Shown here: one piece after another, positions 5,201 to 62,032 of the stretch | Layout: each line of letters starts with the position of its first letter | How positions within the stretch are numbered: position 1 is the first letter of the stretch | NCBI RefSeq assembly: GCF_003790525.1 | Contig: NZ_CP033635.1 | Length of the DNA stretch: 64,000 nt | Source of the DNA: Escherichia coli | GTDB lineage: Bacteria; Pseudomonadota; Gammaproteobacteria; Enterobacterales; Enterobacteriaceae | Reading direction: 5' to 3' (one strand) | Made by a program: the position numbers and the translations under genes | The notes under the pieces: generated by a model | What the model was told of the DNA's origin: nothing | What the model saw: only the letters and a program-made list of their open reading frames with translations | The model's database searches: none

Positions 5201-5602
5201 ATTACCGAGCAGTTTATCAACTGGTCGCTCTCTGACTCGGTCACGCGCGTGGTGTTGACGATTCCGGCCCCTGCCGATGCCAACAGTGAAGAAGTGACGG
5301 AAATCCTGCTCACCGCAGCGCGTCGCTGCTCGCTGGTGATCGACAACCCGGCACCGGAAGTCTTCCTGGTGGATCTGCAACAGGGGATTCAGATTTTCGA
5401 GCTGCGTATTTACGCCGCAGAAATGGGTCACCGCATGCCGCTACGCCATGAGATTCACCAGCTAATTCTGGCAGGCTTCCATGCCCACGGTATCGATATG
5501 CCATTCCCGCCCTTCCAGATGCGTCTGGAAAGCCTGAATGGTAAACAAACGGGGAGAACATTAACTTCTGCGGGCAAAGGTCGTCAGGCGGGAAGTTTGT
5601 AA
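2279..5602 (+). CDS. mscM: miniconductance mechanosensitive channel MscM (YjeP)
   Basis: 1107-aa ORF with a GTG start. It has a signal peptide, a long Q/L-rich coiled-coil periplasmic region, multiple TM helices and a C-terminal MscS-type domain (GLGFGLQEIFANFISGLIILFEKPIRIGD). Confidence 0.9.
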   Translation: MRLIITFLMAWCLSWGAYAATAPDSKQISQELEQAKAAKPAQPEVVEALQSALNALEERKGSLERIKQYQEVIDNYPKLSATLRAQLNNMRDEPRSVSPGMSTDALNQEILQVSSQLLDKSRQAQQEQERAREIADSLNQLPQQQTDARRQLNEIERRLGTLTGNSPLNQAQNFALQSDSARLKALVDELELAQLSANNRQELARLRSELAEKESQQLDAYLQALRNQLNSQRQLEAERALESTELLAENSADLPKDIVAQFKINRELSAALNQQAQRMDLVASQQRQAASQTLQVRQALNTLREQSQWLGSSNLLGEALRAQVARLPEMPKPQQLDTEMAQLRVQRLRYEDLLNKQPQLRQIHQADGQPLTAEQNRILEAQLRTQRELLNSLLQGGDTLLLELTKLKVSNGQLEDALKEVNEATHRYLFWTSDVRPMTIAWPLEIAQDLRRLISLDTFSQLGKASVMMLTSKETILPLFGALILVGCSIYSRRYFTRFLERSAAKVGKVTQDHFWLTLRTLFWSILVASPLPVLWMTLGYGLREAWPYPLAVAIGDGVTATVPLLWVVMICATFARPNGLFIAHFGWPRERVSRGMRYYLMSIGLIVPLIMALMMFDNLDDREFSGSLGRLCFILICGALAVVTLSLKKAGIPLYLNKEGSGDNITNHMLWNMMISAPLVAILASAVGYLATAQALLARLETSVAIWFLLLVVYHVIRRWMLIQRRRLAFDRAKHRRAEMLAQRARGEEEAHHHSSPEGAIEVDESEVDLDAISAQSLRLVRSILMLIALLSVIVLWSEIHSAFGFLENISLWDVTSTVQGVESLEPITLGAVLIAILVFIITTQLVRNLPALLELAILQHLDLTPGTGYAITTITKYLLMLIGGLVGFSMIGIEWSKLQWLVAALGVGLGFGLQEIFANFISGLIILFEKPIRIGDTVTIRDLTGSVTKINTRATTISDWDRKEIIVPNKAFITEQFINWSLSDSVTRVVLTIPAPADANSEEVTEILLTAARRCSLVIDNPAPEVFLVDLQQGIQIFELRIYAAEMGHRMPLRHEIHQLILAGFHAHGIDMPFPPFQMRLESLNGKQTGRTLTSAGKGRQAGSL

Positions 5603-5612
5603 GGTCTTTGTG

Positions 5613-5632
5613 GCCGGATGAACCCATCCGGC
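5613..5632. terminator. shared hairpin between convergent mscM and yjeO
   Basis: gccggatg-aacc-catccggc is a perfect 8-bp stem lying directly between the two convergent stop codons. It is REP-like and has no strong T-run. Confidence 0.45.
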
Positions 5633-5947
5633 TTATAAGCAAAACTGATAGCGCAGAAAAAACTGCCACAGCCAATAGCCGAAAATAGCCAGCGCGGTGG
5701 CGTACATAAACCAGCCGCGTTTTTTTCGCCACAAAGCGAACCAGAGAAAAGGGAAAAAGAGCGGTAACGTCATTATCACACCGACATCACGGGTATCGTC
5801 ATCTTCGAGATACATCAGCACATCGCAGACGTTATTAATCCCGCGTCCATCAATCATCCACTCTTTGTCCAGCGCGGAAGTGATGGTTATCCAGAGGAAC
5901 GCCACAATAAACCAGATGCAGCACAAGATAAACATGCGCGCACTCAT
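5633..5947 (-). CDS. yjeO: small inner-membrane protein YjeO
   Basis: 104-aa hydrophobic ORF, with synteny and size as K-12 yjeO. Confidence 0.8.
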   Translation of the reverse strand: MSARMFILCCIWFIVAFLWITITSALDKEWMIDGRGINNVCDVLMYLEDDDTRDVGVIMTLPLFFPFLWFALWRKKRGWFMYATALAIFGYWLWQFFLRYQFCL

Positions 5948-6258
5948 GAGATAATCGGTCGCTTAATTTCGCTATAGCGCATACGAAACAAATCGCCGTA
6001 TCCCACTAATTCTCCGCGAAAAACCAGACATCTAATAAGATAAGCGCAATAGATATCCGGCAGGTTTCCCCACCGCGGACCATCGCGCTCTTTGAGGGTA
6101 TTAATAGTGTTACCCACCACCATCGCTACTTTGCGGGTGTGGCGGGTATCGACAAAAGAGAGGACCGTTTGCTCTATTTCCGCCACATCCCCGGCAGAAA
6201 AGTGCAGCTCCCTGATTTCATCTTCGGTTATCACTGGATCCCGACTAGCGTCGTCCAT
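5944..6258 (-). CDS. yjeN: uncharacterised protein YjeN
   Basis: ORF 5944-6279. The internal ATG (MDDASRDPV...) gives 104 aa and is preceded by AGGAAG at good spacing. The gene overlaps the yjeO start by 4 nt. Confidence 0.7.
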   Translation of the reverse strand: MDDASRDPVITEDEIRELHFSAGDVAEIEQTVLSFVDTRHTRKVAMVVGNTINTLKERDGPRWGNLPDIYCAYLIRCLVFRGELVGYGDLFRMRYSEIKRPIIS

Positions 6259-6320
6259 AACGTCTTCCTTTCCAGACAACTCATCGCCGGAGAGACGATG
6301 AGTTGCAGGATTTCATATGA

Positions 6321-7823
6321 TCAGTCGAGAGCTAACTCAGGTTTGTTCGCCATGCGACTGCAATAGTTCTGGTAAATCGCCATCGCTAACAGCGAGAAGA
6401 AGACAGGGCCGCCAATCATCCACAATGTGCTGTCCCAGTCTCCAGCTTCAACCACAGGTTGAATGATGGTGAAGACGTTCGCAAATGTCACCACCAGTAC
6501 GACAACCACTGTTGCAATCATTGCCGACATATGCGTTTTGAAAATCACAAACGGTCTGTCGAGATCCTGACGTGCTTTAAAAAATGGGAAAGCCAGCGCG
6601 AGGAACAGGTAAGGAAGCGTCATAGACACGTTCGCCATCAGCGTCAGCTTGTTAAAGAACGCCGATGCGGTACCGCCACCAAACGAAACCAGCAGAATGA
6701 AGATAGTAACCAACCCGCACTGCATCCACATGGCAATAGACGGCATCCCCATCGTATTCAGGCGCGTCATCGGTTCCGGCCACAATGCTTTCGGCGTTCC
6801 CTGGATGATGGCTTTCAGCGGTGAATAGCAAAGCGTAAAGAACGCACCGGTATAAGCGAGGAACATCGACAGTCCGGTAATACGCGCAAACCATACGCCC
6901 AGCGACAATGACGCTTCAGGTGAAAAATGCAGTGCGTTACCCAGCGTCACCCCGAGGCTCTTCATCAGCACATAGGTAATATTGCCGAGGTTAACGGAAC
7001 CATTACTTAATACCTGCTGCCAGTTTGTGCTGACGCCCCATAAAAATATTGCCAGCGAATAACCGATTGAAATAACAATAGCGGCAAAAACAATACCTTT
7101 GGCAAAGTTCTTTTCTGGATTTTCCGTTTTATCGACCAGACCACCCACCGCTTCAATTCCGCCATAGGCAAAAATAGCAAATACCACAAACGATAGCATT
7201 GCCAGACCGGACTGATAACCTGGGTTCGGTGATGCAAGGAAATTAATATCCTGCGCGAAATGCCCACCATTTAATAACAAAATAGTAATGCTTACTAACA
7301 GCAATACTAAATTCAGACACATTACTGCAATACCGCCCACCGCAGTAATGCGGGCAATTTTATTAATCCCCTTTGAAGCAACGACGGTGACCAGAATCAT
7401 CCATGCCACTGCCAGCAGACCAACCACCTGCGTAGGCTCCAGTCCGGCAATACGCCAGTGCTGGGTCATGTCGCTACCATAGAGGAATGTTGAGAACGGT
7501 ACCCAAACTTTCGCTGAGGTACTCACCATCCAGATGATATAAGAGGAAAACCACATAAATGTACCAATGAAGGCAAAACGTGGTCCGACACTATTATTCA
7601 TCCAGGAATAGATACCACCTTCTTCTTTGCGATAAGCCGCTCCCATTTCAGCCATCATTAAGGCGAATGGAATAAAGAATAACAATGCAGAAAATATATA
7701 AAAGGGAATCGCACTATAACCCATTAAGTAATAAGCCGATGGGCTATTGGCAAATCCAAATACGGAAGTAAAGATCATCAATATGAGTCCTATCAGACTC
7801 ATCTTTTTTATCGTGTGAGGCAT
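6321..7823 (-). CDS. yjeM: APC-superfamily amino-acid/polyamine transporter YjeM
   Basis: ORF 6321-7865 (514 aa) with about 12 TM helices. The start at MPHTIKKMSLIG... gives 500 aa and has an AAGGA RBS. Synteny supports the call. Confidence 0.85.
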   Translation of the reverse strand: MPHTIKKMSLIGLILMIFTSVFGFANSPSAYYLMGYSAIPFYIFSALLFFIPFALMMAEMGAAYRKEEGGIYSWMNNSVGPRFAFIGTFMWFSSYIIWMVSTSAKVWVPFSTFLYGSDMTQHWRIAGLEPTQVVGLLAVAWMILVTVVASKGINKIARITAVGGIAVMCLNLVLLLVSITILLLNGGHFAQDINFLASPNPGYQSGLAMLSFVVFAIFAYGGIEAVGGLVDKTENPEKNFAKGIVFAAIVISIGYSLAIFLWGVSTNWQQVLSNGSVNLGNITYVLMKSLGVTLGNALHFSPEASLSLGVWFARITGLSMFLAYTGAFFTLCYSPLKAIIQGTPKALWPEPMTRLNTMGMPSIAMWMQCGLVTIFILLVSFGGGTASAFFNKLTLMANVSMTLPYLFLALAFPFFKARQDLDRPFVIFKTHMSAMIATVVVVLVVTFANVFTIIQPVVEAGDWDSTLWMIGGPVFFSLLAMAIYQNYCSRMANKPELALD

Positions 7824-38472: not shown

Positions 38473-38916
38473 CTATATTTCCAGACACCTGTTATCACTT
38501 AACCCATTACTGGCCCGCTGCCGTAGATATTCCCGTGGCGAGCGATAACCCAGTGCACTATGCGGATGCCATTCGTTATAATGCTCGAACGCCTCTGCAA
38601 GGTTCTTTGCTGCCGTTAACCCGTCTGGTTTGGGCATGATACTGATGTAATCACGCTTTATCGTTTTCACGAAGCTCTCTGCTATGCCGTTACTCTCCGG
38701 ACTCCGCACCGCCGTGTTCTTCGGTTCAAGTCCCAACATCCGGGCGAACTGGCGCGATTTAGCCCCGACATAGCCCCACTGTTCGTCCATTTCCGCGCAG
38801 ACGATGACGTCACTGCCCGGCTGTATGCGCGAGGTTACCGACTGCGGCCTGAGTTTTTTAAGTGACGTAAAATCGTGTTGAGGCCAACGCCCATAATGCG
38901 GGCTGTTGCCCGGCAT
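38473..38916 (-). pseudogene. chimeric ORF: IS1 InsB N-terminus fused to IS2 OrfB (InsD) C-terminus
   Basis: The translation begins as IS1 InsB ([38 protein letters not shown]). It then switches to the rve-integrase tail of IS2 ([34 protein letters not shown]...[19 protein letters not shown]). Confidence 0.8.
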
Positions 38917-39110
38917 CCAACGCCATTCATGGCCATATCAATGATTTTCTGGTGCGTACCGAGTTGAGAAGCGGTGTAAGTGAACTGCAGTTGCCATGTT
39001 TTACGGCAGTGAGAGCAGAGATAGCGCTGATGTCCGGCGGTGCTTTTGCCGTTACGCACCACCCCGTCAGTAGCTGAACAGGAGGGACAGCTGATAGAAA
39101 CAGAAGCCAC
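38835..39110 (-). CDS. insA: IS1 InsA
   Basis: 91 aa beginning [43 protein letters not shown]. The start lies 55 nt from the IS1 end, as in IS1. Confidence 0.9.
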
Positions 39111-39174: not shown

Positions 39175-40194
39175 GTGAACAATAACCAGGGTCGTTTCGT
39201 ATTTCCGGATACCTGGTTTGGCCCATTACTGGGGGAGTTTGAAGAAGTGCTTGATGCATACGACACTGATGAAATCAGTGAGACGGGTTATATCAACAAA
39301 CTCAGACGCCTTGCTCAACAGGAGCCTGACTTTATTGATATACACGCTCATCTGGCATATGCATTTCTGGAGCAGAATGCCCCGCGTAAGGCACTGAACG
39401 CCGCTCTTAAAGGACTGGCGGCAGGTAATCGTCTCATCCCGGAAAGTTTCAGTGGTGAAATCATCTGGATGCATCCCGAAAACCGCCCTTATCTGCGCGC
39501 GCTTTATGCAACAATTCTCGCAAATGTGCACTTACAGCGTCATCAGGATGCGGTTATGCTCACTGATAAAATACTGGCATACAATCCTGAAGATAATCAG
39601 GGTGCCCGCTGGTTGTTGGGCTCAGAACTGTTACGAACAGGCGATCATAAGCAAGCCTTCAGTGTACTGAAAGAGCATGCTGATGAATTTTCACCTTACT
39701 GGTATGAACTTGGTCTTCTGCATTTTCTGAATGGGGAACATGTTAAGGCTGCCACAGCTTTTCGTCATGGCTTTGCTACAAACACTTACATCGCGGAAAT
39801 GCTGTGCGGAAATTTGCATCCATTTCCACTTGCTGTGCGGCATAACTTCTCCGGCTCTCTGGATACGGCAGAAGATTACTATGCAACATACTCACCATTA
39901 TGGGGACAATATCCGGAAGCATTGCTGTTTGTAAACTGGCTCTATAACCATTCCTCTGTGCTGCATGAACGAGCAGAAATCATTAAATGCGCCGAAATGC
40001 TGATGCAGGAAGATGATTTCGAAATATGCGAAAGCATTTTAAGACAGCAGAAGCTGTTGCGGGAAAGAATTGATGAGACACTTTCTGAGGAAATTGTACA
40101 GAAATGCAGAAATATTAACGGTGAATATGTCTGGCCCTGGATATTGCCGTTTTCAGCAGCAGGAATGAAACACTCAAGCATCCAGCATCAGTAG
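39175..40194 (+). CDS. hypothetical helical-repeat (TPR-like) protein
   Basis: 339-aa ORF with a GTG start 10 nt from the IS1 end. Repeated amphipathic helix pairs such as AHLAYAFLEQNAPRKALNAALKGL and WYELGLLHFLNGEHVKAATAFRHG suggest TPR-like repeats. I recognise no catalytic motif. Confidence 0.45.
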   Translation: MNNNQGRFVFPDTWFGPLLGEFEEVLDAYDTDEISETGYINKLRRLAQQEPDFIDIHAHLAYAFLEQNAPRKALNAALKGLAAGNRLIPESFSGEIIWMHPENRPYLRALYATILANVHLQRHQDAVMLTDKILAYNPEDNQGARWLLGSELLRTGDHKQAFSVLKEHADEFSPYWYELGLLHFLNGEHVKAATAFRHGFATNTYIAEMLCGNLHPFPLAVRHNFSGSLDTAEDYYATYSPLWGQYPEALLFVNWLYNHSSVLHERAEIIKCAEMLMQEDDFEICESILRQQKLLRERIDETLSEEIVQKCRNINGEYVWPWILPFSAAGMKHSSIQHQ

Positions 40195-40337: not shown

Positions 40338-41942
40338 TTATTCCTGGAGTTCATTAAAGTTCTTTCGTAATACTTTGTAATCAAACACGTTATGACTGGC
40401 ATCAAAAACCACGGATTTCCCCTGCCAGCGGGTAATCACCTCCTCCGGCGTTTTCGGTTGAGCCGGTCTGGTTACGCCCATCCATGCATTAATCAGATAA
40501 TCATTATACGCAGTGGAAAAAACGCTGTTCACCGTCTGGCGATCGACATGCTCTCCCAGTGCCGGGCTGTACCAGATAAACATCGGAACATGATAAGCCT
40601 GCTGACTGGGTTTTATTCCACCATGAAAATAGGCATGTTCTTTTGTCGGGTCATACTCCAGACCGTGATCTGAAAAATACATGACGGATGCCTGACGCGT
40701 TTCCAGCATGGTGAAAACCTGTCCCAACAAACTGTCGGTATAATGAATGGAATTATCGTAACAGACTTCTTCTGTATCCAGCGGTTTAAACACGGCTTTA
40801 TCTCTGGGCCAGTTACTGCAAACCGGTTCATGGCTGCCCGTCAGATGCAGAACAATCAGTTTCCTGCTCCCCGGATTACTGTTCAGTGCTTCAGCCAGGT
40901 GTGGGAGCAGTAACTCATCATAGCCTCTGACATAAATTCTGTTTCTGGCCCGCATGGCGATACTGGCCACAGCCGTTCCGTTCTGTCGGAAAGCGGACTG
41001 CGCACTGAGCCACCAGGTATCGAACCCCGCCTGATTCGCCATGTTGATAATGTTATCAGGGTAATTACGGATATCATGATGCAGTACACTATCGGCAGAT
41101 AACGCCAGTGGAACAGCCAGCGCGGTGTAAGGTGCGCCACTGATTGCCTGAGTGAACAGTTTCAGTCGTGATTTCTGTTTCTGAAGCTCTGGTGTGGTAG
41201 GGCGCGAATACCCGTAAATGGACATGTTATCAGTCCTTGCAGATTCACCAATCACCAGAACAAATACGTCAGTGTTGTTATCCGTAATCACCAGATCGTA
41301 GTGAGGTATGGTATCAGCAATCGTCATTAATCTCTGATGCTCCTTTGCGGCCAGTGCAAAATAGTTCAGATTAAAGAAAGGGGTATATGTGGCAAACCGG
41401 GAAGCGACTATGTAAGGATCAACTTCATTTATTTGATACTGTTTCTTCAACGCAAACTGGAAGGAAGAATATAACGTTACTGTAATTAACAATAAAAATG
41501 TAATTACCGTGACCTTTTCCGATGGCAATGAGGACGTTTTATTTATTGCTGAACAGAAGAACAATAAAAAGAGGATAATAAATGCGATAACATAAACAAC
41601 ATACATCCTGAACATTCTTATTACTTCATCAGGATCTGTCTGAAGGATACTGATTGCAAAACCATCATTAAATGTTGTGCCAAATGTACACCATGAATAC
41701 AGGCTGATACTGATATCTGCAGCAGTCAGTAATGTGAACGGGAAGGCAAGAATCAAACGCAACGTAATCGATTTCATTGCCTTAATAATAAGAAGTGCCA
41801 GGATAAAGAATAATATCCGGTAAATCAGATGCGCTCCTGAGGATACAAGGAGATTAGAAAGGGTAAAGACAACCACTGATAACACGAGGCGCTTATCATT
41901 GCTAATCCGTGACCAGTGTATGAACGGAAGATTAATTTTCAT
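40338..41942 (-). CDS. phosphoethanolamine transferase (EptA/YhbX-type: N-terminal 5-TM domain plus sulfatase-fold domain)
   Basis: ORF 40338-42011. The likely start is MKINLPFIHWSR. It has an N-terminal polytopic region, then sulfatase-type motifs VLVIGESARTDNMSIYGYSRPTTP, HLTGSHEP and SDHG. Confidence 0.75.
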   Translation of the reverse strand: MKINLPFIHWSRISNDKRLVLSVVVFTLSNLLVSSGAHLIYRILFFILALLIIKAMKSITLRLILAFPFTLLTAADISISLYSWCTFGTTFNDGFAISILQTDPDEVIRMFRMYVVYVIAFIILFLLFFCSAINKTSSLPSEKVTVITFLLLITVTLYSSFQFALKKQYQINEVDPYIVASRFATYTPFFNLNYFALAAKEHQRLMTIADTIPHYDLVITDNNTDVFVLVIGESARTDNMSIYGYSRPTTPELQKQKSRLKLFTQAISGAPYTALAVPLALSADSVLHHDIRNYPDNIINMANQAGFDTWWLSAQSAFRQNGTAVASIAMRARNRIYVRGYDELLLPHLAEALNSNPGSRKLIVLHLTGSHEPVCSNWPRDKAVFKPLDTEEVCYDNSIHYTDSLLGQVFTMLETRQASVMYFSDHGLEYDPTKEHAYFHGGIKPSQQAYHVPMFIWYSPALGEHVDRQTVNSVFSTAYNDYLINAWMGVTRPAQPKTPEEVITRWQGKSVVFDASHNVFDYKVLRKNFNELQE

Positions 41943-42063
41943 AATAATTGAGAAAAAGCGATATTTCTGTCCGGCGCTGGTCGCTGAACATGCCGCGACA
42001 GGTGAATTCATTATTCTGAATAATCATAAAGCCACCACAAATGTAGCGGCGTAAACAGGAACG

Positions 42064-42348
42064 TCATGATGTTTTCTTTCGTGACAGAAGAGAACCGCAC
42101 ATACCACCCGCAATCATTATCATCAGGAATAACATCCCCAGGCCAACGATTACTCTTAATGCCGGATGAACCCGATCGGCGAGAAAAAATAACTCCATCC
42201 CGAAACCAATAACAAGCCAGGCCAGCGCCATTCCGACGAGCCCTTTTAACAGCAATCTCACGCTCCTCTCCTTCTGCATTCTTAACGAAAATGCCTTACA
42301 ATAACAGCAGCCGGGGAAGGCAACGCTGGCTGCTGAACGGTATGACAT
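42064..42348 (-). CDS. small hypothetical 2-TM membrane protein
   Basis: 94-aa ORF, possibly starting at the internal MQKERSV. It has two hydrophobic helices (LVGMALAWLVIGFGMELFFL and VIVGLGMLFLMIMIAGGMCGSLL) and lies immediately upstream of the transferase gene, in the same orientation. Confidence 0.45.
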   Translation of the reverse strand: MSYRSAASVAFPGCCYCKAFSLRMQKERSVRLLLKGLVGMALAWLVIGFGMELFFLADRVHPALRVIVGLGMLFLMIMIAGGMCGSLLSRKKTS

Positions 42349-42400: not shown

Positions 42401-42667
42401 TTACAGTTTATTCAGAATAAGGCATGCGGCCTGGTTTAATGCAATAAACTCCTGCCAGCTGTACTGAGACTGATAATTCAGTAAATACTGGTCTTCAACC
42501 CGGCAAATCTGTGGGCGTTTATCATAAATTGCACACAAATGAGAATCAGTCTGATAGTAACGGCAAATACCGTCACCACGATCCAGACATTGCGTTTCAC
42601 CCGCCCTGTTGACATGACGACAACAGGCCCCACACTGGTTACAGGGAAATGGAGGGTGTAATTTCAT
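42401..42667 (-). CDS. YkgJ-family cysteine-cluster (Zn/Fe-chelating, CxxCxxCC) protein
   Basis: 88 aa with the motif PCNQCGACC plus further Cys residues (CLDRGDGIC, CAIYDKRPQIC). Its ATG overlaps the stop of the upstream 523-aa gene by 4 nt. Confidence 0.65.
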   Translation of the reverse strand: MKLHPPFPCNQCGACCRHVNRAGETQCLDRGDGICRYYQTDSHLCAIYDKRPQICRVEDQYLLNYQSQYSWQEFIALNQAACLILNKL

Positions 42668-44235
42668 CGCTTATTTAACCAGTCACGAACAGAAGCCACA
42701 TTTCCTGACTCAAACGGCAACGCAATCCCTCGTCGGCGGACTTCTTCTCTCAGCAGAAGTCCGCGCTCTATCTCACTGTTTACGCTATCCAGATGAAGTG
42801 AAAAATGATTTAACTCGGCAGCATCAACAGAAAATTCCAGTGCAGTAAGTTCCACAAGATAGCGATCAAGTTCAGCATTGACTGCCTGAAAGTATTCCAG
42901 TGACCGCTGGAATTTGTCCTTAAATTTGTCCAGAAATGCCCATACCCGCTGCATAACCTCGCTATATTCGAGATAATAATTCATCACCAGCCCGAGAATA
43001 CCTGTCGTCAGCGCACCACAAAAGGCAGCAAGCTCTGAACCAAATGGGAAAATAAGGATCTGCGCCATCGCCTCATTTATCATCACCCCTCCGGCAACAG
43101 CCACACCTGCTGCTATCAGTTTAGTGACCGCTTTGGCTAACTGCCCCGGCGATAATCCCTCCGGATTAAATACCAGGACTTTAAAGGCCTGAACGAGATT
43201 GTTCCACATTTCCCTGATAAGCCGGACAATCATTCTTTCCGTTGTCAGGAATATATTTAACAGCGTTGTGGTAATACCTGACAGTATCCCTCCGATGACA
43301 CCATCTTTAAAGGCAATTAAAAAAGAACTGAATTTTTCCTGTACTCGTTCCTGGCAGGCACGTAATGCTGACGTTATTTCGGACAGGCATTTGCCGGCGC
43401 TGAATGAGTTCCGTTGCTGCCTGATAATATGCGGGATTCGTTCCCTCAGTTCGAACCAGATCTCGGCAAGAATAAGCCCCAACATCTGTCGCGTCCCCAT
43501 ACGAAAACCGGAATTAAGCGAAGCACTGGCGACAGCAGTAGCAAACTTACTACTCAGGTAATAGCTCTGATTAATCGTGGCCTCATATTTTTCCCGGGCA
43601 TATTTATCAGCCCTTTCCATACGCTCAGTATCTGCATCAGCTTTTTTTCTCAGACTTATCAGACGTTTCTTTTCCTTTTCTGTCAGCGTTGCCTGAGATT
43701 CAAGCTCTGCTATCTGCCTTAACGTATCTTCTCTGTTTTTCTGCAGCGTGCAAATAAACGCATCCATTGAGTCTGCTTTCTTTGATTTATTGAGCGACTC
43801 ATGAGTGAATGCCAGATTTGAAGCGTCATTTGCCAGTTCTGCACCATCCCGTTCAGCAAGAATTCTCCCCGGATCATCATGAATTTCTTTAGCGGAAATA
43901 ATATGATCCAGATTTTTTTTGTCGTCAGAAGCAAACACCTCGCCTGTATATGCATCAGTAAGAGTCCCTGCCTGATGCGCACGCTTTCCTTCCCGGTTCG
44001 TCGCGATATAGTTCTCATGGCTGTGGTAATGATGAGAATCATATTCGCCACGACCTTCATACCGCTGTCGCTCAGCCTCCGTGGCATAAATGCCATTACG
44101 CACATTATGGATAGTGTCAACATCACCACCCTTACGATCATTTAGCAACAGAAAATCCAGCCCGAATGATGTAACCAGGCTCTTCACCATGGTCTGATGT
44201 AACTCTTCTGTCCAGTCAAATTTTTCCACATTCAT
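42664..44235 (-). CDS. HNH-like nuclease domain fused to a coiled coil and a Gly/Ala-rich hydrophobic C-terminal region
   Basis: 523 aa. The N-terminal region contains GGDVDTIHNVR ... NLDHIISAKEIHDD ... ASNLAFTHESLNKSKK, which fits the D-H...N...N-K pattern of HNH nucleases (compare the Cas9 HNH DVDHIVPQSF...NKVLTRSDKNRGK). A coiled coil follows (aa about 160-230). Hydrophobic segments are GVIGGILSGITTTLLNIFL, LIAAGVAVAGGVMINEAMAQILIF and AAFCGALTTGILGLVMNYYL. Confidence 0.6.
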   Translation of the reverse strand: MNVEKFDWTEELHQTMVKSLVTSFGLDFLLLNDRKGGDVDTIHNVRNGIYATEAERQRYEGRGEYDSHHYHSHENYIATNREGKRAHQAGTLTDAYTGEVFASDDKKNLDHIISAKEIHDDPGRILAERDGAELANDASNLAFTHESLNKSKKADSMDAFICTLQKNREDTLRQIAELESQATLTEKEKKRLISLRKKADADTERMERADKYAREKYEATINQSYYLSSKFATAVASASLNSGFRMGTRQMLGLILAEIWFELRERIPHIIRQQRNSFSAGKCLSEITSALRACQERVQEKFSSFLIAFKDGVIGGILSGITTTLLNIFLTTERMIVRLIREMWNNLVQAFKVLVFNPEGLSPGQLAKAVTKLIAAGVAVAGGVMINEAMAQILIFPFGSELAAFCGALTTGILGLVMNYYLEYSEVMQRVWAFLDKFKDKFQRSLEYFQAVNAELDRYLVELTALEFSVDAAELNHFSLHLDSVNSEIERGLLLREEVRRRGIALPFESGNVASVRDWLNKR

Positions 44236-44281: not shown

Positions 44282-45361
44282 TTAACTCTGGGATGAAAAA
44301 TCATCAAATTTCACAACCGAACTGGCCAGTACATCATCCAGCTCATCCTTATTAATAACGTTCATTCCATTATCATCCGTTTCCATTTCAATAACGTTAT
44401 CTTTTATCACTGCCTCACCATTTTCCTGTTTCCGCGGTTTAAACAGTGGCGTTGTAATAATATCCGTCATAATAGCGGCCAGTGAATATCCATGGTCAAT
44501 AAGCACAATGACTTCATCTGATACACTGATATCCTGTTGTTCTGTAATAACAGAATGCATGGATTTAAGCGGCTCAAAATAGTGTTTAATAAATACAGCA
44601 TGCATTCTGTTCAGTGCAGCGAGAATTTCATCAACGTATTGATTAACTTTTGCAAAATGCTCCCGGGCCAGATTCATTTTCTTAACTGCCCGTGCAACAT
44701 CGCAGGCACACTGATGGGCATTTTCAAGAGCTTTCGTCGCATGTCTGTCGTAAGCCCAGCCCGCAATGGCAATCAACGGTGCAGCCACTGCGGTGCCTAA
44801 TACCATTGCGCCGCCGGCCATTCCCATGCCCCCTGCAGCCAGTGAGCCCCCACCAATTGCCGCCATCGTCGCGTTATAAGCCGCGGCACCAGAAAGCGCT
44901 GCAATGGGTGTACCTGTAGAAGCCGCAGCAAATGCCATCACTCCGCTATACACAGCAAAACCCGCAGCAGCCCCGGAAACTCCGGCAGCAACGACCGTAC
45001 TGAGATATTCTGTCGCTGAAATGGCCAGGTTCTGAATCTTATTGATGTTATGTTGCGGGACACTCAGTTTCAGGTCTTTATTGCCCTCTTTTTCCAGACG
45101 CGCCAGGAGCTCAGCAGCAATCCTGTCGAACTCACTGAAATCTTTACCAATCTCAAGCTCTTTATTTCCGAGCGTTGTTAATTTTGATGATGTCTGAGCT
45201 TCAGCCTGCTCAAATTTTTCTTTATGCTCCTCGTAACGCTCTTTTGCTTTTTCGAGGATATCCTCTGCTTCTGACTTTTTTTGATATCCATCGTAAGCTT
45301 TTTTTCCGCCGAATGCCGCAGCGCCGGCAGCCACACCCAAAATAATAAAAGGTAACGCCAT
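44282..45361 (-). CDS. glycine-zipper membrane protein, function unknown
   Basis: 359 aa. It has an N-terminal TM helix (MALPFIILGVAAGAAAFGG), a charged coiled coil, and then a roughly 95-aa Ala/Gly-rich hydrophobic block (VVAAGVSGAAAGFAVYSGVMAFAAASTG...GGGSLAAGGMGMAGGAMVLGTAVAAPLIAIAGWAY). The C-terminal part is a soluble acidic domain. Confidence 0.55.
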   Translation of the reverse strand: MALPFIILGVAAGAAAFGGKKAYDGYQKKSEAEDILEKAKERYEEHKEKFEQAEAQTSSKLTTLGNKELEIGKDFSEFDRIAAELLARLEKEGNKDLKLSVPQHNINKIQNLAISATEYLSTVVAAGVSGAAAGFAVYSGVMAFAAASTGTPIAALSGAAAYNATMAAIGGGSLAAGGMGMAGGAMVLGTAVAAPLIAIAGWAYDRHATKALENAHQCACDVARAVKKMNLAREHFAKVNQYVDEILAALNRMHAVFIKHYFEPLKSMHSVITEQQDISVSDEVIVLIDHGYSLAAIMTDIITTPLFKPRKQENGEAVIKDNVIEMETDDNGMNVINKDELDDVLASSVVKFDDFSSQS

Positions 45362-53457: not shown

Positions 53458-56400
53458 TTATACCGTTGCTGCGTCGGTCACAACACCCAGCTCTTCGACT
53501 ATCTTTTGTAGGCGGGCGATCTGCTCTATATCAGGGAACACACCGGTAACGCCTTCGTTGTGGATATGCGTAAAAGGCTGTTCAAAGAGCTGCCGCATTT
53601 CAATGGTGCCGTAATCGCGAATGTGGTTTTTCAGCAATGACAGGAAGCGCAATTGCTGGCTGGTCAGGCTGTTATCAGCGGCGAACTGAGCAAAGCGCAC
53701 TTCCACCGCGTCGCTGTCCATCCCGATGATGGTACGCAATAGTTTATCCAGGCTGGCGGTCGCCTGCGGGTAGAACTCTTTCAGTGCCCGGATATCAACG
53801 TTAGGGTTCTGGATCAGCACCAGTTTAGCCAGTTCATCCAGCTCGCTTTGCGTCACAGGCTCGCCGTTGCGGATTTTCTTCAGCACCGGATTTTGCTGGA
53901 ACAGCGGCTCCAGCGCTCCCTGCACCTGCTGGCGATAGAGTTTGAAGTCAATCGAGCGGATGTTGGTTTTGCGGTTTTCCGTCTGAATCAGGTTCGCATC
54001 TTCGGTAATATCCACCTGTATCGAACCAAATTTCGGCGTCGCGTCTTTTTCCATCAGGTGCATGATGCCGCGCAGATGAATGCGGATATCTTCCAGCTCT
54101 TCCAGGCTGGCCTGCTTCCACCAGCCTAAATCACGAAGCTGATTGATCCGCGGTCCTTGCTGTTGGACCTGCGCCAAATGCGGCGGCAGGCGCTCCACTT
54201 TTTCGACGATGACCGGCCAGAGCACATCCAGCTCTTCCGGGTTGGTATAACGGGCAGTTTGCGCCGCCAGAATATCCATATCAAAGCGCATAGCGTCGCT
54301 TTGCCCGCGCACGTCCAGCCACTGCATCAGCGGGGCCAGGACAGATAGCAAATCCTGCTGTGTTTTCGGGGAAAGCTGGCGCAGCACTTTTTCATCGCTG
54401 TACTGCGCTTTTTGATGCCACTTTTCCTGGACGGCAATCGACTTTTCATCCAGTGCATTGATTTGCTCGCGTAGCTGGTGAGCAACTAAATCCACCGCCT
54501 GTTTGTCGAATTTACGTTGCGCAGCGGCCCCCAGCATAACCCACGCTTCGAAGCGTTTTTGTGCAAGCGATTTTGTCGCTGTGACTTCGGCCTCTTCGGT
54601 ATGCAGTTCGTGATACTCAAAATTGCCCCAGTGATCGAAAATGCGGAATTTCTGTTTATCCAGAGGTTTGCCGTTATCGTCGTAACCGTACAACCCCGGA
54701 CAGAGGCGCGTACCACGGCCAATCATCTGCCAGAACTTCACTTTTGATTTGACCGGTTTGGCAAAGACCAGATTCACAATTTCCGGGACATCAATACCGG
54801 TATCGAGCATGTCAACGGAGATAGCGATGGTCAGCTCTTTGTTGGTGCTTTCATCCAGCCCTTTAAAATCATCAATCAGTTGCTCGGCGCGGGGATCGTA
54901 ATTGTCGATGACCTGGCAGAAGCGCCCGGCAAACTGCGGGTACATATCGTCGAATAATTCATTCAACAGCAGCGCGTGTTTGTGGTTACGGGCGAAAATG
55001 ATGGTTTTACCTGGCAACTGGCCGTCCCGATCTTTCAGGCCATTTTCCATCAGGTTACGCAGGATATAGCGGTTGGTGTCTTTGTTGTAGATCGCCTCAT
55101 CCAGCGCCTTGCCATCAAACTCCAGCGTATTGGGATCTATGCCTTGTTCTTCCAGCTCGCGGATTTGTGCGTCGCTTAATTTCTCCCGTTTGATGCCTTC
55201 GCGCAGGAATTCTGTGGTGTGCGTGACAACCTCATAGGGAACCAGATTGTTATCGGCGATGGCATCTTCCAGGCTGTAGTTGGCGGTAGGAATACGTCCT
55301 TCACAACCAAACAGGCCGAAAGTGGTTTTACTCACCATGTCAATCGGCGTGGCCGTCAGGCCAATCTGGAGGGCATCAAAATACTTAAACAGATCGCCGT
55401 AAACGTTGTAGATAGAGCGATGGGATTCATCGGCGATGATCAAATCGAAATAACCAACATCGAAATGGTCCATGATTTTCATCATACCAGGATAGGTGGC
55501 GATGTAGATCCTAGCATTCTGCCTGTCTGCTTTTTTCGATTTCCCGACCACATACAGCGGCTCATTGGTGAATTGATTAAAGGCATTCGCCGCCTGTTTA
55601 CGTAGTTCCTTGCGGTCGCAAAGAAACAGGACGCGTTTTACCCAGCGGGCATCAATCATTAGTTTGCTTAGCGCTATTGCCACGCGGGTTTTGCCTGTAC
55701 CCGTAGCCTGAACAATTAGCGATTGCCGGTATTTGTTGGTAAACCGCTCGCTGACACGGGCAATGGTTTCAAGCTGGTACAAACGTCCGGCAACGGCCTT
55801 ACCTTCGTTATCTTTTACGTGCGGCACACTGTTCAGCGGAAGACGGGTTTCACGCTGTTGAATAAGATATTGCAGGCTTTCCTTGCTGTAGAAGCCAAAC
55901 ACCCGACGCGGGGGATAACCATGAGTTTTATGGTCATCCCACAGCCAGATATCATAGCCGTTGGTGTAGAAGATGATCGGACGCTGGTCGTATTCTTTTT
56001 CCAGCCAGTCTGCATACAGCCGGGCCTGAATTCGTCCTTGCTCGGCATTGACGCTGGTTTTTTTTGCTTCCACCACCGCCAGCGGTTTGTGTGCCTCATC
56101 CCACAAGACATAGTCCGCATAACCGTCTCCGGTCGCGGTAGGTTGTTCTTTAACGGGATGTTCCTGCGTAACCTGATCGGTATTTTTAAGGCCTTCGCCT
56201 ACATTCCAGTCAGCAGCAAGCAGGCGAGAGTCAATCAGGCGACGGCGGGTTTCCGCTTCATCAATAGAGAGAATATCGGCAACATGCTGGTTACGCGCTC
56301 TGGCTTCATTCAGGCGTTGAGTGAGGTGTTCGGCCTTTTCCTGTTCTTGCTGTAGTGCGCGTTGCAGCGCCAGTTCGCGCTCACGGCTTTCATCCTGAGC

Positions 56401-56874
56401 CCTGATTGCATCTTCCAGACGTTTTTCATCTGCACGACCTGAAGATTGTGTTAATGGAGGGAGTGTAAATTTGGGGCAGTCATCAACATTACCGTGGGCG
56501 TAGCGAACATACAGCCAAATTCCCAACAAATACGCTTCTTTGAGCAGCCAGTAAGTATCTTTAGCTTTGATACGTCCGCCGTGCGCGGCACGGTTGCCAT
56601 GGATACGCAGCGCATCCATTTTCATGATGATGGCTTCCGGCATCATGCTGGTAAAGACATCAGCATTCATTAAATCGTAAAGATTAGCCTTAATACCTTC
56701 CGGCAACCGCTCCTGACGATACAACCAGCGCACCATCAATTCGGTGTAGTTGCGCAGCTTGACCAGACAACTTTCCGGATCGGAGTGAACATAGCGTTCC
56801 GCCATACACGCGAGTTCAGCCAGTTCCGGCCACTGGCTGCGCAACATTTCAAAATTGAGAGACTGCTCCATCAA
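53458..56874 (-). CDS. hsdR: type I restriction endonuclease/translocase subunit, long form
   Basis: 1138 aa. It has a PD-(D/E)xK-like nuclease core (GYADYVLWDEAHKPLAVVEAKK), SF2 helicase motif I VQATGTGKT and motif II IIADESHRS. An additional roughly 150-aa N-terminal helical domain and a long C-terminal extension are also present. Confidence 0.9.
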   Translation of the reverse strand: MMEQSLNFEMLRSQWPELAELACMAERYVHSDPESCLVKLRNYTELMVRWLYRQERLPEGIKANLYDLMNADVFTSMMPEAIIMKMDALRIHGNRAAHGGRIKAKDTYWLLKEAYLLGIWLYVRYAHGNVDDCPKFTLPPLTQSSGRADEKRLEDAIRAQDESRERELALQRALQQEQEKAEHLTQRLNEARARNQHVADILSIDEAETRRRLIDSRLLAADWNVGEGLKNTDQVTQEHPVKEQPTATGDGYADYVLWDEAHKPLAVVEAKKTSVNAEQGRIQARLYADWLEKEYDQRPIIFYTNGYDIWLWDDHKTHGYPPRRVFGFYSKESLQYLIQQRETRLPLNSVPHVKDNEGKAVAGRLYQLETIARVSERFTNKYRQSLIVQATGTGKTRVAIALSKLMIDARWVKRVLFLCDRKELRKQAANAFNQFTNEPLYVVGKSKKADRQNARIYIATYPGMMKIMDHFDVGYFDLIIADESHRSIYNVYGDLFKYFDALQIGLTATPIDMVSKTTFGLFGCEGRIPTANYSLEDAIADNNLVPYEVVTHTTEFLREGIKREKLSDAQIRELEEQGIDPNTLEFDGKALDEAIYNKDTNRYILRNLMENGLKDRDGQLPGKTIIFARNHKHALLLNELFDDMYPQFAGRFCQVIDNYDPRAEQLIDDFKGLDESTNKELTIAISVDMLDTGIDVPEIVNLVFAKPVKSKVKFWQMIGRGTRLCPGLYGYDDNGKPLDKQKFRIFDHWGNFEYHELHTEEAEVTATKSLAQKRFEAWVMLGAAAQRKFDKQAVDLVAHQLREQINALDEKSIAVQEKWHQKAQYSDEKVLRQLSPKTQQDLLSVLAPLMQWLDVRGQSDAMRFDMDILAAQTARYTNPEELDVLWPVIVEKVERLPPHLAQVQQQGPRINQLRDLGWWKQASLEELEDIRIHLRGIMHLMEKDATPKFGSIQVDITEDANLIQTENRKTNIRSIDFKLYRQQVQGALEPLFQQNPVLKKIRNGEPVTQSELDELAKLVLIQNPNVDIRALKEFYPQATASLDKLLRTIIGMDSDAVEVRFAQFAADNSLTSQQLRFLSLLKNHIRDYGTIEMRQLFEQPFTHIHNEGVTGVFPDIEQIARLQKIVEELGVVTDAATV

Positions 56875-58702: not shown

Positions 58703-59029
58703 TTGTTCATTACCTTTCAAAGCAAGAAGTTAAGGACTATTTGCGAGAGTATGCATGAGGCAAATGAGATCTTTGGTGACAAAGTGGCATCAAGACTACG
58801 CTCGCGACTTTCCGATCTTTCCGTGACAGACAACATATTACTGTTGCCCGTAGGTTCGCCGGAGGTCTGCTTTGAGGATGGGGAAGAGTGTATTACAATT
58901 ACCATTCTCGGTGATGTAAAAATGGGATTTGTCTGTGGGAATACAGTTCAGCCCAAAAATCAAGATAATACAATTAACTGGTCCCGAGTTAGCCGGATAC
59001 GGTTAGTGTTCATAGGTGACGTGAAATGA
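58703..59029 (+). CDS. HigB-like / plasmid-maintenance killer-type toxin (RelE superfamily)
   Basis: 108 aa with a TTG start. The N-terminus (M)FITFQSKKLRTICE resembles the F-x-x-KKL-x-x-C opening of HigB-type killer proteins. The stop overlaps the downstream gene by 4 nt. Confidence 0.5.
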   Translation: MFITFQSKKLRTICESMHEANEIFGDKVASRLRSRLSDLSVTDNILLLPVGSPEVCFEDGEECITITILGDVKMGFVCGNTVQPKNQDNTINWSRVSRIRLVFIGDVK

Positions 59030-60108
59030 TAGTTACGCAGGACTTCCAGCCTGACTGGGTATCTCCACCCGGTGATACAATTATAGATCTAATGGATGAA
59101 CATGGGCTTTCTGGTGAAGAACTGAGTAAGAGGATTGGATTGTCTCTTATCCGGGGTCAGCAACTTCTTGAAGGAAAAATCCGACTCAATGAGTCTCTGG
59201 CTTGTAAGCTTGAGGAGTTATTCAACGTATCGACAGACTTCTGGATCAAGCGCGAAGTCGCTTATCGCCAGCAAATTGGATACCTCGAGAAAGTGAATAA
59301 TGATTGGCTCGAATCATTGCCTGTACGTGATATGATGGAGTTTGGTTGGATCCCCAAAACTACAACTCGGGAAAGTAAATTCCAGCACTGCCTATCGTTT
59401 TTCGGAATAAATTCCGTCAATGATTTTTTTTATAAAATTCAGTCAGATGCTCCTTTGGTCGCTTTTCGTAAATCTCTTAATCTGGCAACCGAGCCTATGG
59501 CCGATTTGGTGTGGCTGACTAGGGCTGCACAACTTACCTCAAACCAAAACTGTGCTGTATGGGATAAAGAGGGGCTGATAGCATTGTTGCCAGAACTGCG
59601 CAAAGCTACAAATGAACCCGACATGAGGATTTTTATCCCTTACATTCGCGACCTTCTCGCCACTGCTGGAGTTTCTCTCGTTGTGTTGCCAACGCCAAAG
59701 GGATGTCGGGCAAGTGGTGCTACCTGCTTTTTTACACCAGATCGCGCAACCCTAGTCATGAGTTTCCGTTATCTGACCGATGACCATTTTTGGTTTACGC
59801 TGTTTCATGAGATTGGGCATCTCATCTTGCATGAAGCTGTCCGAGTTCGCGTAGAAGGTAAAGATAGTCTTTCGTCGGAAGAGGAAAAGGAAGCAGATAA
59901 ATTTGCCGTTGATGTTCTTATCCCAGAAGAATACCGGCAGCAACTTAGTCGCTATGGTGTCCGGCATTGGAAAGAGATCATCCGGTTAGCTAGGAAAATG
60001 GGGGTATCCAAAGGGATCGTACTGGGATATTTGCAGCATGAAGGTAATATACCTTTTTCTCACCTTAATCGGTTTAAAGTGAGATTCCGTAAAGAAGATA
60101 TCGTCTGA
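59026..60108 (+). CDS. XRE-type HTH fused to an ImmA/IrrE (M78, COG2856) zinc metallopeptidase
   Basis: 360 aa with an N-terminal HTH region (GDTIIDLMDEHGLSGEELSKRIGLSLIRGQQLLEGK). The C-terminal part has the HEXXH motif in WFTLFHEIGHLILHE. Confidence 0.7.
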   Translation: MIVTQDFQPDWVSPPGDTIIDLMDEHGLSGEELSKRIGLSLIRGQQLLEGKIRLNESLACKLEELFNVSTDFWIKREVAYRQQIGYLEKVNNDWLESLPVRDMMEFGWIPKTTTRESKFQHCLSFFGINSVNDFFYKIQSDAPLVAFRKSLNLATEPMADLVWLTRAAQLTSNQNCAVWDKEGLIALLPELRKATNEPDMRIFIPYIRDLLATAGVSLVVLPTPKGCRASGATCFFTPDRATLVMSFRYLTDDHFWFTLFHEIGHLILHEAVRVRVEGKDSLSSEEEKEADKFAVDVLIPEEYRQQLSRYGVRHWKEIIRLARKMGVSKGIVLGYLQHEGNIPFSHLNRFKVRFRKEDIV

Positions 60109-60110
60109 TA

Positions 60111-61055
60111 TCAGCCGCCGAAATAGACATAACGGTCAGGTGATTTCTGCCAGTTGCACAACGCATCTTCAATAACCTGCATTCTCAAGTAGGGTGCAGG
60201 AATAATTGCCGCAAGGTCAGCTAGTTTTTCATTCAATACGTCTATTGTGTCACCAGCAGTCCGGCTATTGCTGAAAAGTAGCCGGCTTCCTTGAAGGGGC
60301 CCGGTTGCTCCATTCAGAAAAGCATGACCCGGCTCTACATCCAGAAGTCCCGTTTTCTTGAGCATAGTTAGGTAATCAAATTTTGCGGTTCGTCCAAATG
60401 AGATCACGGCATTTAGCCCTGAATACAATAGTTCGAATAAAGATTCTGGTGAAGATGAAAAGCTCTTGGCCTCTGCAAACCTAGCCTCATGACTGTGTGT
60501 AGCACCAATGAATCCGATGTAAGAGCGAAAAACCGCAGGTATTGAACGACGAGAGTGATATTTCTTCGTTTCATATTTCCGATGGTTACCATATTGTCTT
60601 AGGCTACTGTTAGCTGTCAACTCATCAGAGACGCTGGCGAACCATTGTTCAAAAGCAGCAAAGTCATCAGTTATCGTATCCCATGTCCACGTTTGTGTAC
60701 CGAGTCCACTGTATATATCTCGACACAAAATCCAGCCGGTTTTGTTACTCTTGCCGAAATGTGTGGCAAGGAAAACCAGCCAGCAGGCTTCATCGTAATT
60801 GTTGTCACGAAGATAAAGGCAGGCAGCGCGGAGAGGATCAAAAACATCAGAATTCGGCTCTTTTCGTAACGGAGTCATATAATCGGTCCGTAATGCAAGA
60901 GTTTCCACATAGCGTATACGACGTATACTGTCGATAATCTGACAGGCTAAAACATCAAAGCAGGCAGGAGAACTTAGGCCATTTAGGTTGTGTTCATTGC
61001 GGCTAAAATTTTGCAAATTACTAACCAGCTGACTGATTTGATTATGTCTTTTCAT
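60111..61055 (-). CDS. hypothetical 314-aa protein translationally coupled to the TS-like gene (possible aGPT-pyrophosphorylase-like / HhH-glycosylase-fold protein; unverified)
   Basis: The ATG overlaps the TS-like stop (ATGA). No classical motif is certain. The segments GNHRKYETKKYHSRR, FGRTAKFDYLTMLKKTGLL and NGATGPLQG remind me of the family annotated as alpha-glutamyl/putrescinyl thymine pyrophosphorylase clade 3. This rests on memory only. Confidence 0.35.
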   Translation of the reverse strand: MKRHNQISQLVSNLQNFSRNEHNLNGLSSPACFDVLACQIIDSIRRIRYVETLALRTDYMTPLRKEPNSDVFDPLRAACLYLRDNNYDEACWLVFLATHFGKSNKTGWILCRDIYSGLGTQTWTWDTITDDFAAFEQWFASVSDELTANSSLRQYGNHRKYETKKYHSRRSIPAVFRSYIGFIGATHSHEARFAEAKSFSSSPESLFELLYSGLNAVISFGRTAKFDYLTMLKKTGLLDVEPGHAFLNGATGPLQGSRLLFSNSRTAGDTIDVLNEKLADLAAIIPAPYLRMQVIEDALCNWQKSPDRYVYFGG

Positions 61056-62032
61056 TGTAGTCTTCCTTCAAAAATAAACCGATATTCCTGATTTTTCATT
61101 GCAGCCAACTCTTGGAAGGCTAGTCCTTTGTGGTTGGGTGTATGTGAACGTAACAAAAAGTGGATTTTTAATATACGCAATAAATCCTTCCAGTAGTCAT
61201 TCAAGGAAGTAGTGTCAATATCAAATTCCTTATTCTCTCGAAGAGCTTTTTCTGCCTCAAGCAGGGGTAAGATATCATCTAAGGAATGCATTTCAGGCAT
61301 CGATCCCATGACTGGTAGGGTGCTCATGAACCCCTCTTTCTGAAGAGCCTTCACTTTTTCTAAATCATTTTTATAGAGATGTAGGCTGGATACAAAGTGA
61401 TGATAGTGACCCAATTCGCATCCTATCAAGCGGGCAACTAATTCCTGTAGCATCGTGAACGCAAATACATCATGAGGCAGCCCCATAAAGGCATCGTTAG
61501 AACGCATACAAACAAATAGATGCAGCTCTTCACATCTGACAATAAACTGCATAGATATTGTACAAGGAATATCTACGTATTCTCGCTGTTCAGTTTTTGA
61601 GGGCACCAAGTCTGAGGCATCGAAAAGCTGTATTACTGCACGTCTGGTAGGTTTTTTCTCCTGCAAAAGGTTGATAACATTTTTTAGCTGATTATATAAA
61701 CCACGCATATTAAACAACCGTGGCCCGTAACCACCATGTATTTTCCCATCTGACTCAGCGGATTCAGCGTAACGTGGTATGAAGTGTTTTATAAACTCAA
61801 GATCGTTCTGAGCTGAGAGATACCACAGAAATTCACCTAAGCAACTAATTAGTTTTCCTCGGGATTCTGTTCTACTTATTCTTCGGCGGGGGTCGGTAAG
61901 GACAAGATAGGCACCAAGAATCTCTAGAGTTGATCCTTTTGTAGGATCGTTACTGAGTCCATCCGCTAGGATAGCTTGATGAACATCGTTTATCAGATCG
62001 TCAACACACTCAGCCGTTACCAAAAGAGTCAT
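61052..62032 (-). CDS. thymidylate synthase superfamily protein (ThyA / dNMP hydroxymethylase-like)
   Basis: 326 aa. It aligns by eye to the E. coli ThyA core. [14 protein letters not shown] matches [26 protein letters not shown] matches LAPCHAFFQFYV, retaining the catalytic Cys. [27 protein letters not shown] matches [35 protein letters not shown] matches GDTHLYSN. The N- and C-termini are divergent. Confidence 0.75.
   Translation of the reverse strand: [326 protein letters not shown]

Follow-up and report, generated by a model that had tools for sequence, protein, structure and literature searches.

A WYL-associated three-gene cassette of Escherichia coli joins a divergent HNH-like domain to a putative membrane module and is a candidate defence system

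The window analysed here, a stretch of 64,000 nucleotides from Escherichia coli (contig NZ_CP033635.1, assembly GCF_003790525.1), contains on its minus strand a gene for a protein of 523 amino acids (aa), hereafter protein B, that a preliminary description had singled out as an unusual fusion of an HNH-like nuclease to hydrophobic helices. We found the functional unit to be larger than that description had seen: B belongs to a conserved three-gene cassette together with its upstream neighbour A and a third gene, C, and the cassette comes with a WYL regulator, a defence-island and mobile-element context and misannotated protein families. We read it as a WYL-controlled defence cassette, with a probability of roughly one half, in which B would be a cytoplasm-facing HNH nuclease located at the inner membrane with A, and C a metal-dependent regulator or cofactor. 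The three genes and the parts of B are the following.

42401..42667, minus strand: protein C, 88 aa, placed by Pfam match in the YkgJ/CxxCxxCC family of cysteine-cluster proteins
42664..44235, minus strand: protein B, 523 aa, an open reading frame (ORF) with HNH-like domain, coiled-coil hairpin, hydrophobic helices and C-terminal helical domain
44282..45361, minus strand: protein A, 359 aa, adjoining B and without a Pfam family
43771..44127, minus strand: B aa 37-155, divergent HNH/His-Me finger domain, from conserved residues and model
43558..43767, minus strand: B aa 157-226, charged helical (coiled-coil) hairpin, packed against the HNH domain or projecting from it
42964..43329, minus strand: B aa 303-424, three marginally hydrophobic helices, from hydropathy and conservation
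42667..42963, minus strand: B aa 425-523, C-terminal helical domain without counterpart in the distant relatives P0134, P0148 and P0158

The cassette emerged from a genome neighbourhood survey of 80 loci from distinct species. A adjoins B in 79 of these loci and C lies directly 3' of B in 78-79 of them, the start codon of C overlapping the stop codon of B by 4 nucleotides. In Firmicutes and Synergistota the gene order changes, to B-C-A in Acetobacterium, Ruminococcus and Fretibacterium, and the three genes are co-inherited in these phyla and in Proteobacteria as well as on plasmids. This synteny strongly supports the view that A and B work together. It also makes the hetero-oligomerisation of A with B, as proposed in the preliminary description, plausible, since the co-occurrence in 79/80 loci and the phage copies described below back such an assembly indirectly.

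Protein A opens with a hydrophobic helix (aa 1-19), continues with a charged coiled coil (aa 21-111) and a hydrophobic and extremely conserved Gly/Ala block (aa 112-205), and closes with a helical C-terminus. The argument first offered for its assembly with B, a likeness in composition between this block and the hydrophobic helices of B, proved weak, because a profile-profile comparison in hhalign found no homology between A and the C-terminal half of B (probability 6 %) and the block of B (aa 303-424) holds only 21 % Gly+Ala compared to 49 % in A. As a separate observation, A aa 24-73 (~45143-45292) and B aa 419-472 (~42820-42981) show a weak local similarity (hhalign P = 0.006; hmmsearch independent E-value 0.0035 in relative P0139) that may reflect a shared helix module or chance; the segment follows the N-terminal hydrophobic helix in A and the last hydrophobic helix in B. 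Protein C scores 25.3 bits against the Pfam family CxxCxxCC (PF03692) with its cutoff of 23, which makes it a member of this family, and among 79 sequences the cysteines C9, C12, C15, C16, C35, C45, C55 and C82 are each conserved in at least 90 %. A plasmid copy of C is annotated in RefSeq as ‘YkgJ family cysteine cluster protein’. No PADLOC model matched C, and in PHROGs none of the three proteins had an informative family.

The N-terminal part of B was assigned to the HNH/His-Me finger nucleases because residue conservation, the structural model, Foldseek matches, recurrent Pfam families and the register with Cas9 all agree. The four motifs quoted in the preliminary description, GGDVDTIHNVR (aa 36-46), YHSHENY (aa 70-76), NLDHIISAKEIHDD (aa 108-121) and SNLAFTHESLNKSKK (aa 139-153), are present in the ORF and conserved beyond chance in the 43 diverse relatives over which conservation was scored. 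T41, Y65, H71, H111, D121, N140 and N149 are invariant among these relatives and D110, H43, N44, R46, H119, R124, N136 and K152 are at least 90 % conserved, while H73 of YHSHENY varies. The AlphaFold model of B aa 1-235, with a mean predicted local distance difference test score (pLDDT) of 90.2 and a predicted template modelling score (pTM) of 0.78, has the HNH-like fold that the preliminary description had anticipated. Modelled strand 107-111 carries D110-H111 at its end, N140 precedes strand 141-145 and helix 146-152 holds N149 and K152. The model thereby displays the strand-strand-helix arrangement of the beta-beta-alpha metal finger along with the catalytic residues of the HNH superfamily, that is, a His ending strand 1 after an Asp, an Asn after the turn and another in the helix. 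The GGDVDTIHNVR and YH motifs, which had been suggested to complete the metal site, are conserved and lie within the confidently folded part of B.

Compared against the PDB with Foldseek, the full-length model of B gave only non-significant matches to helical or membrane proteins; since the weakness of these matches was due to the poorly modelled C-terminal half, the N-terminal domain was modelled separately. Its best nine Foldseek matches are all HNH domains (E-values of 0.36-0.98 each), namely those of several Cas9 proteins and of the Gme HNH nickase (probability 0.82, TM 0.55), while Cap5 and Endonuclease I/Vvn rank lower in the list. When the relatives of B were scanned one by one, HNH_4 (8/33) and GmrSD_C (6/33) were the only recurrent Pfam families, the best sub-threshold scores being 3.4e-05 for GmrSD_C, obtained in a larger set, and 0.004 for HNH_4. 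The domain of B alone reaches 15-16 bits against GmrSD_C, for which the cutoff is 23. Full-length B has no Pfam match at E <= 0.1, no significant NCBIfam match and no PDB sequence match, and a profile search of PDB sequences found nothing. The HNH claim of the preliminary description consequently holds at the superfamily level, on the invariant residues, the model and Foldseek, but not as a significant match to a Pfam HNH family. At the level of fold and motif we infer a divergent HNH-type nuclease domain with predicted activity.

A profile alignment to the HNH segment of SpCas9 places D110-H111 of B on D839-H840, N140 on N854 and N149 on N863 (P = 0.0017, with a 15-residue insertion), and the spacing between N140 and N149 equals that between N854 and N863. 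With the Cas9-HNH_4 and GmrSD_C (DUF1524) nucleases, B shares the strand-strand-helix core, an upstream D-x-Y-x-G hairpin, the D-H ending strand 1, the Asn after the turn and the Asn-x-x-Lys in the helix. It differs from them by a 15-residue helical insertion between the two strands, by an additional conserved N-terminal subdomain with the GGxVDTIHNxR and YH motifs, and by having no Cys/His zinc site. Whereas GmrSD combines an N-terminal DUF262 with a C-terminal DUF1524, B has no DUF262 match and carries its HNH-like domain at the N-terminus.

The charged coiled coil of about 70 aa that had been described after the motif block was recovered at aa 157-226, where 41 % of the residues are charged and AlphaFold predicts helices at 157-166, 168-180, 186-199 and 203-226 with pLDDT >90. 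They form a hairpin, the tip of which carries an insertion of 11-15 aa in relatives of 540 aa. Further downstream lie the hydrophobic segments h1 (~306-332), h2 (372-396) and h3 (402-424), with h2 and h3 forming a hairpin around a conserved FPFG loop. The three helices proposed earlier therefore exist as segments, but they are only marginally hydrophobic: their Kyte-Doolittle maximum is ~1.7 and crude Hessa-scale sums amount to +2.0, +4.7 and +2.7 kcal/mol, compared to -1.9 for a control transmembrane helix in the adjacent 94-aa ORF. Insertion of these helices into the membrane is plausible. The best conserved element in the C-terminal half of B is a polar motif within h1, TTxxNxFxTTxKxxxRxIRE, and its persistence in distant relatives suggests an interface or pore-lining role instead of a simple anchor. 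Across the B family, Lys and Arg are enriched on the N-terminal side of h1, in the stretch from h1 to h2 and behind h3, with none in the 5-residue loop between h2 and h3. By the positive-inside rule, this distribution fits a hairpin of h2 and h3 whose two ends face the cytoplasm; the HNH domain would then be cytoplasmic as well.

The combination of nuclease domain and helices is not the unusual fusion it was first taken for. The full-length architecture of B is common to more than 1000 clusters at 90 % identity, which are 46-70 % identical to B and span Enterobacterales, Pseudomonas, Vibrio, Moraxella, Neisseriaceae, Acetobacteraceae and others, and an exhaustive search with aa 1-175 as the sole query returned 598 clusters at 50 % identity, nearly all of them 510-580 aa long. 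As this large family shares one full-length architecture, the fusion is its standard form and no local accident. Among 268 collected proteins, no fusions of B to A or of B to C (Rosetta-stone proteins) were found, and relatives of 817-879 aa carry unrelated extensions.

We read the cassette as directed against phages or mobile elements because of its PADLOC candidate matches, its hsdSMR and AAA_15 neighbours, the UvrD, helicase, MZB and NERD genes next to another copy, the WYL regulators and the Bunzi-like relatives. In PADLOC, B matches PDC-M40B (1.3e-42 over aa 11-425) and A matches PDC-M09A (3.5e-22). PDC-M40 and PDC-M09 are untested multi-gene candidates defined by their embedding in BREX, DISARM or type I restriction-modification (R-M) systems (Payne et al. 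2024, bioRxiv 10.1101/2024.01.29.577857). The cassette resembles them in that it also adjoins a type I R-M system; it differs in that the matches of A and B fall into two different candidate systems and that the PDC-M40B profile stops before the last ~100 aa of B. No match to the partner PDC-M40A was found among the neighbours of B. That relatives of the cassette are flagged as PADLOC candidates is already known, as is the general kind of membrane-associated nuclease effector. The window features on which this defence context rests are given below.

45410..46306, minus strand: HTH-WYL-WCX transcriptional regulator, 298 aa, of CapW/BrxR-type architecture, from Pfam and PADLOC matches
48094-50612, minus strand: AAA_15 gene pair of low guanine-cytosine content (33 %), directly adjoining hsdS
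50621-51763, hsdS; 51760-53394, hsdM; 53458-56874, hsdR: complete type I R-M system beside the cassette

The 298-aa protein matches the Pfam families WYL (3.8e-09), WCX (1.6e-07) and HTH_11 (3.4e-04) and the PADLOC WYL model (2.6e-22). With a winged helix-turn-helix, a WYL and a WCX domain beside a defence operon it belongs to the CapW/BrxR type, and its DNA binding is putative. A WYL regulator from one of three sequence clusters lies upstream on the same strand in ~58 of the 80 loci, so that it is an accessory and not a universal part of the cassette. The E. coli copy sits in a defence island beside the type I R-M system. The 540-aa AAA_15/DUF3696 ATPase of the adjoining pair matches PDC-M55A (1.4e-40), NsnB (3.2e-37) and HEC-03B, and its ORF overlaps that of its 313-aa partner; this pair probably constitutes a candidate defence system of its own, lodged at the type I R-M locus.

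The cassette was detected in 590 of 5426 complete E. coli genomes (~11 %) and in 69 plasmid records, mostly from Klebsiella, in which the order WYL-A-B-YkgJ is kept. A Pseudomonas copy has genes for UvrD, helicase, MZB and NERD proteins downstream of it. A and B without C occur in seven records of Aeromonas jumbo phages of ~260 kilobases, among them phage LAh10 (L082, positions 3979-6575) and phages D3, D6 and D9. The phage A proteins match the A profile with an E-value of 7.5e-66, and the phage B proteins align to B over the full length with 30 % identity, keeping H111, N140 and N149 and replacing H119 and N136. The gene after B in these phages encodes a signal-peptide protein in place of C. 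Distant relatives of B are without the last 100 aa, carry an N-terminal extension homologous to BnzB of the Bunzi system (9.7e-21) and pair with a small TerB-like membrane protein resembling BnzA. As a side observation, this distant family appears to swap modules (L085 1599-6694; L084 4337-6650; P0158): an 879-aa relative has a gene for a Dynamin_N protein directly after it, a 549-aa relative is preceded by a small TerB/DUF533-like protein, and a 616-aa relative has the BnzB-like N-terminus.

In the mechanism we propose, B would be the effector, with its HNH domain, coiled coil and C-terminal domain in the cytoplasm and with the h2-h3 hairpin holding it at the inner membrane, where it may pack against the Gly/Ala-rich helices of A. 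Such a tether could keep the nuclease off the nucleoid, so that it would cut DNA entering or exposed at the membrane; alternatively, B may cut once a trigger sensed by the membrane or by A or C lifts its inhibition. C, through metal or Fe-S binding, would act as regulator or cofactor, and the WYL protein would hold expression low until a nucleic-acid or DNA-damage signal arrives. A bolder version appears doubtful to us. In it, A, B and C would form a membrane-embedded immune complex of a new kind, in which A as glycine-zipper sensor and C as metal or Fe-S switch gate the tethered nuclease. This complex would tell self from non-self by location, cutting DNA specifically where it passes through or touches the inner membrane, be it on phage injection or on conjugative entry. 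Its evolution would have been independent of that of SNIPE and Zorya, and jumbo phages would have recruited it to exclude superinfecting phages.

The best functional precedent is SNIPE. This membrane-bound GIY-YIG nuclease cleaves phage DNA in the course of injection and turns self-toxic upon removal of its transmembrane helix (Saxton et al., bioRxiv 10.1101/2025.11.03.685801). Its anchor was proposed to separate the nuclease from host DNA, and it is found in defence contexts of E. coli (bioRxiv 10.1101/2025.11.03.685801). The likeness is functional only and lies in the concept of anchoring a nuclease to the inner membrane so that its catalytic domain faces the cytoplasm. SNIPE combines, in one polypeptide, a single N-terminal transmembrane helix, a DUF4041 and a GIY-YIG domain, none of which were found in B, whereas the nuclease of B is HNH-type and N-terminal, its hydrophobic helices are C-terminal and marginal, and the cassette has the two further conserved partners A and C. 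Bunzi, a validated system which consists of the TerB-transmembrane protein BnzA and of BnzB, was proposed to act in ‘membrane surveillance’ (Millman et al. 2022). It resembles the distant relatives of B by their BnzB-like N-terminus and BnzA-like TerB partner, while A, B and C of the window match no BnzA or BnzB model and A has no TerB domain. Zorya likewise unites a membrane component with a nuclease to act locally on invading DNA. It comprises the membrane complex ZorAB with nuclease partners, type II having the HNH protein ZorE. The window proteins match no ZorA, ZorB or ZorE model and include no MotAB-like motor, and B is fused to its membrane helices whereas the Zorya nuclease is recruited. 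With the PADLOC models, homology of A, B and C to components of SNIPE, Zorya or Bunzi was not detected.

Several observations weigh against the reading as a membrane-tethered nuclease system. Every Pfam HNH match of B, of its domain alone and of its relatives stays below the gathering score, and the Foldseek matches of the N-terminal domain are individually non-significant. Their Kyte-Doolittle values and crude Hessa sums make the hydrophobic helices borderline candidates for membrane insertion, and AlphaFold is weakest in just this region (pLDDT ~30-45), so that B could be soluble or only conditionally membrane-inserted. The contacts between A and B and between B and C are deduced from synteny, and the role proposed for C is a guess. 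The candidates PDC-M40 and PDC-M09 are, like the cassette itself, predicted defence systems only, and the Snodgrassella copy stands alone among housekeeping genes. A published study of the A-B-C cassette was not found in our literature search, which did not extend to the DefensePredictor supplement.

The main rival would turn A and B into latent pores of an abortive-infection effector, of the alpha-pore-forming-toxin or SLATT type, whose helices insert and depolarise the membrane when triggered, with the HNH domain as second killing activity or DNA sensor; we regard this as possible, if rather unlikely. With their marginal hydrophobicity and many small residues, the helices resemble those of toxins that insert conditionally. 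The C-terminal motif with the highest conservation is polar and sits inside h1, and AlphaFold is unsure of the hydrophobic region as a monomer. Two B relatives give weak SLATT_6 matches (E-value 0.008), AhlB is found among the non-significant Foldseek matches, and WYL regulators commonly control toxic abortive-infection systems (PMC9122588). However, no significant match to a pore-forming family was obtained, the HNH catalytic residues are strictly invariant, which speaks for a central role of the nuclease, and the presence of A and B in jumbo phages would be risky for a constitutive toxin. A further possibility is a non-defence function of the cell envelope or of DNA such as membrane repair or remodelling with dynamin-like proteins or DNA processing at the membrane, in which the HNH-like domain might serve mainly as DNA-binding module. 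One long B relative precedes a Dynamin_N protein, A and a distant partner weakly match the LeoBC C-terminal region (E-values 0.008 and 5e-4), and the Snodgrassella copy lies among housekeeping genes. We nonetheless consider it improbable: the occurrence in 590/5426 E. coli genomes is patchy, a conflict system is indicated by carriage on mobile elements, by the WYL regulators and by the neighbours in defence islands, and links to phage defence exist for bacterial dynamins and Leo too.

Colicins E7 and E9 have HNH DNases that come with small immunity proteins, and B could in principle be such a colicin-like DNase with C as its inhibitor, forming a toxin-immunity or bacteriocin-like module for addiction or inter-bacterial competition with no part in phage defence. 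The 4-nucleotide overlap of B and C, their co-occurrence in 78-79/80 loci and the plasmid carriage of the cassette would suit this picture, which we hold to be very improbable because C belongs to a Cys-cluster metal-binding family and has no Im-like fold, because functions in receptor binding, translocation or lysis are missing, as are secretion genes, because phage copies that lack C still keep H111, N140 and N149, and because the universally retained partner of B is A and not C. The database names suggest yet other functions. RefSeq lists B (WP_001100182.1) as ‘ATP--cob(I)alamin adenosyltransferase’ or ‘cobalamin adenosyltransferase’, a name also carried in nr and UniRef, and homologues of A (WP_001207396.1) are named ‘chemotaxis protein’, the window's own RefSeq copy being a ‘hypothetical protein’. 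No Pfam or NCBIfam match to the adenosyltransferases PduO, CobA or EutT was obtained for B at E <= 0.1, and no match in these databases supports the name given to A, so that both names appear to be propagated errors. That B is an ATP:cob(I)alamin adenosyltransferase is suggested by the propagated name alone; no such family recurs among the 43 B relatives, cobalamin genes were not found near the cassette and the confident fold of B is HNH-like, by which this identity is effectively refuted.

Beyond the cassette and its defence neighbours, the following features were noted.

42031..42050, minus strand: terminator-like hairpin from a consensus scan only, downstream of the cassette and the 94-aa ORF
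42064-42348, minus strand: 94-aa membrane ORF with two strongly hydrophobic helices, between C and the terminator-like hairpin

The hairpin possibly marks the end of the transcription unit, and a promoter scan gave no more sites than expected by chance. The 94-aa ORF, for which RefSeq annotates a shorter version, recurs only in a near-identical E. coli record (L001). It was rejected as a cassette member since it occurs in 0/80 loci, and the same holds for an EptA-like gene. The flank of the cassette at 38473-39110 (minus), 39175-40194 (plus) and 40338-42011 (minus) contains IS1 transposase fragments, a TPR protein and this EptA-like phosphoethanolamine transferase, which suggests the boundary of a mosaic island. 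On the far side of the window, genes at 60111-62032 (minus) and 59026-60108 (plus) encode a pair with matches to aGPT-Pplase3/amino-acid:DNA transferase (4.8e-90) and to a thymidylate-synthase-like protein (5.3e-25), adjoined by an IrrE/Peptidase_M78 protein. Enzymes of this thymidine-hypermodification type are known from phages and are located here in a bacterial chromosomal island.

The unsupported names on the A and B families should be corrected. If the reading of A, B and C as a membrane-associated defence cassette is confirmed, a widespread defence system would be gained, present in ~11 % of complete E. coli genomes, in many Proteobacteria and some Firmicutes and Synergistota, on Klebsiella plasmids and in jumbo phages. 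The cassette would provide the first functional context for a YkgJ-type cysteine-cluster protein, and an effector with an HNH nuclease fused directly to a membrane module would extend the recently described idea of bacterial recognition of foreign DNA by place, not by sequence.

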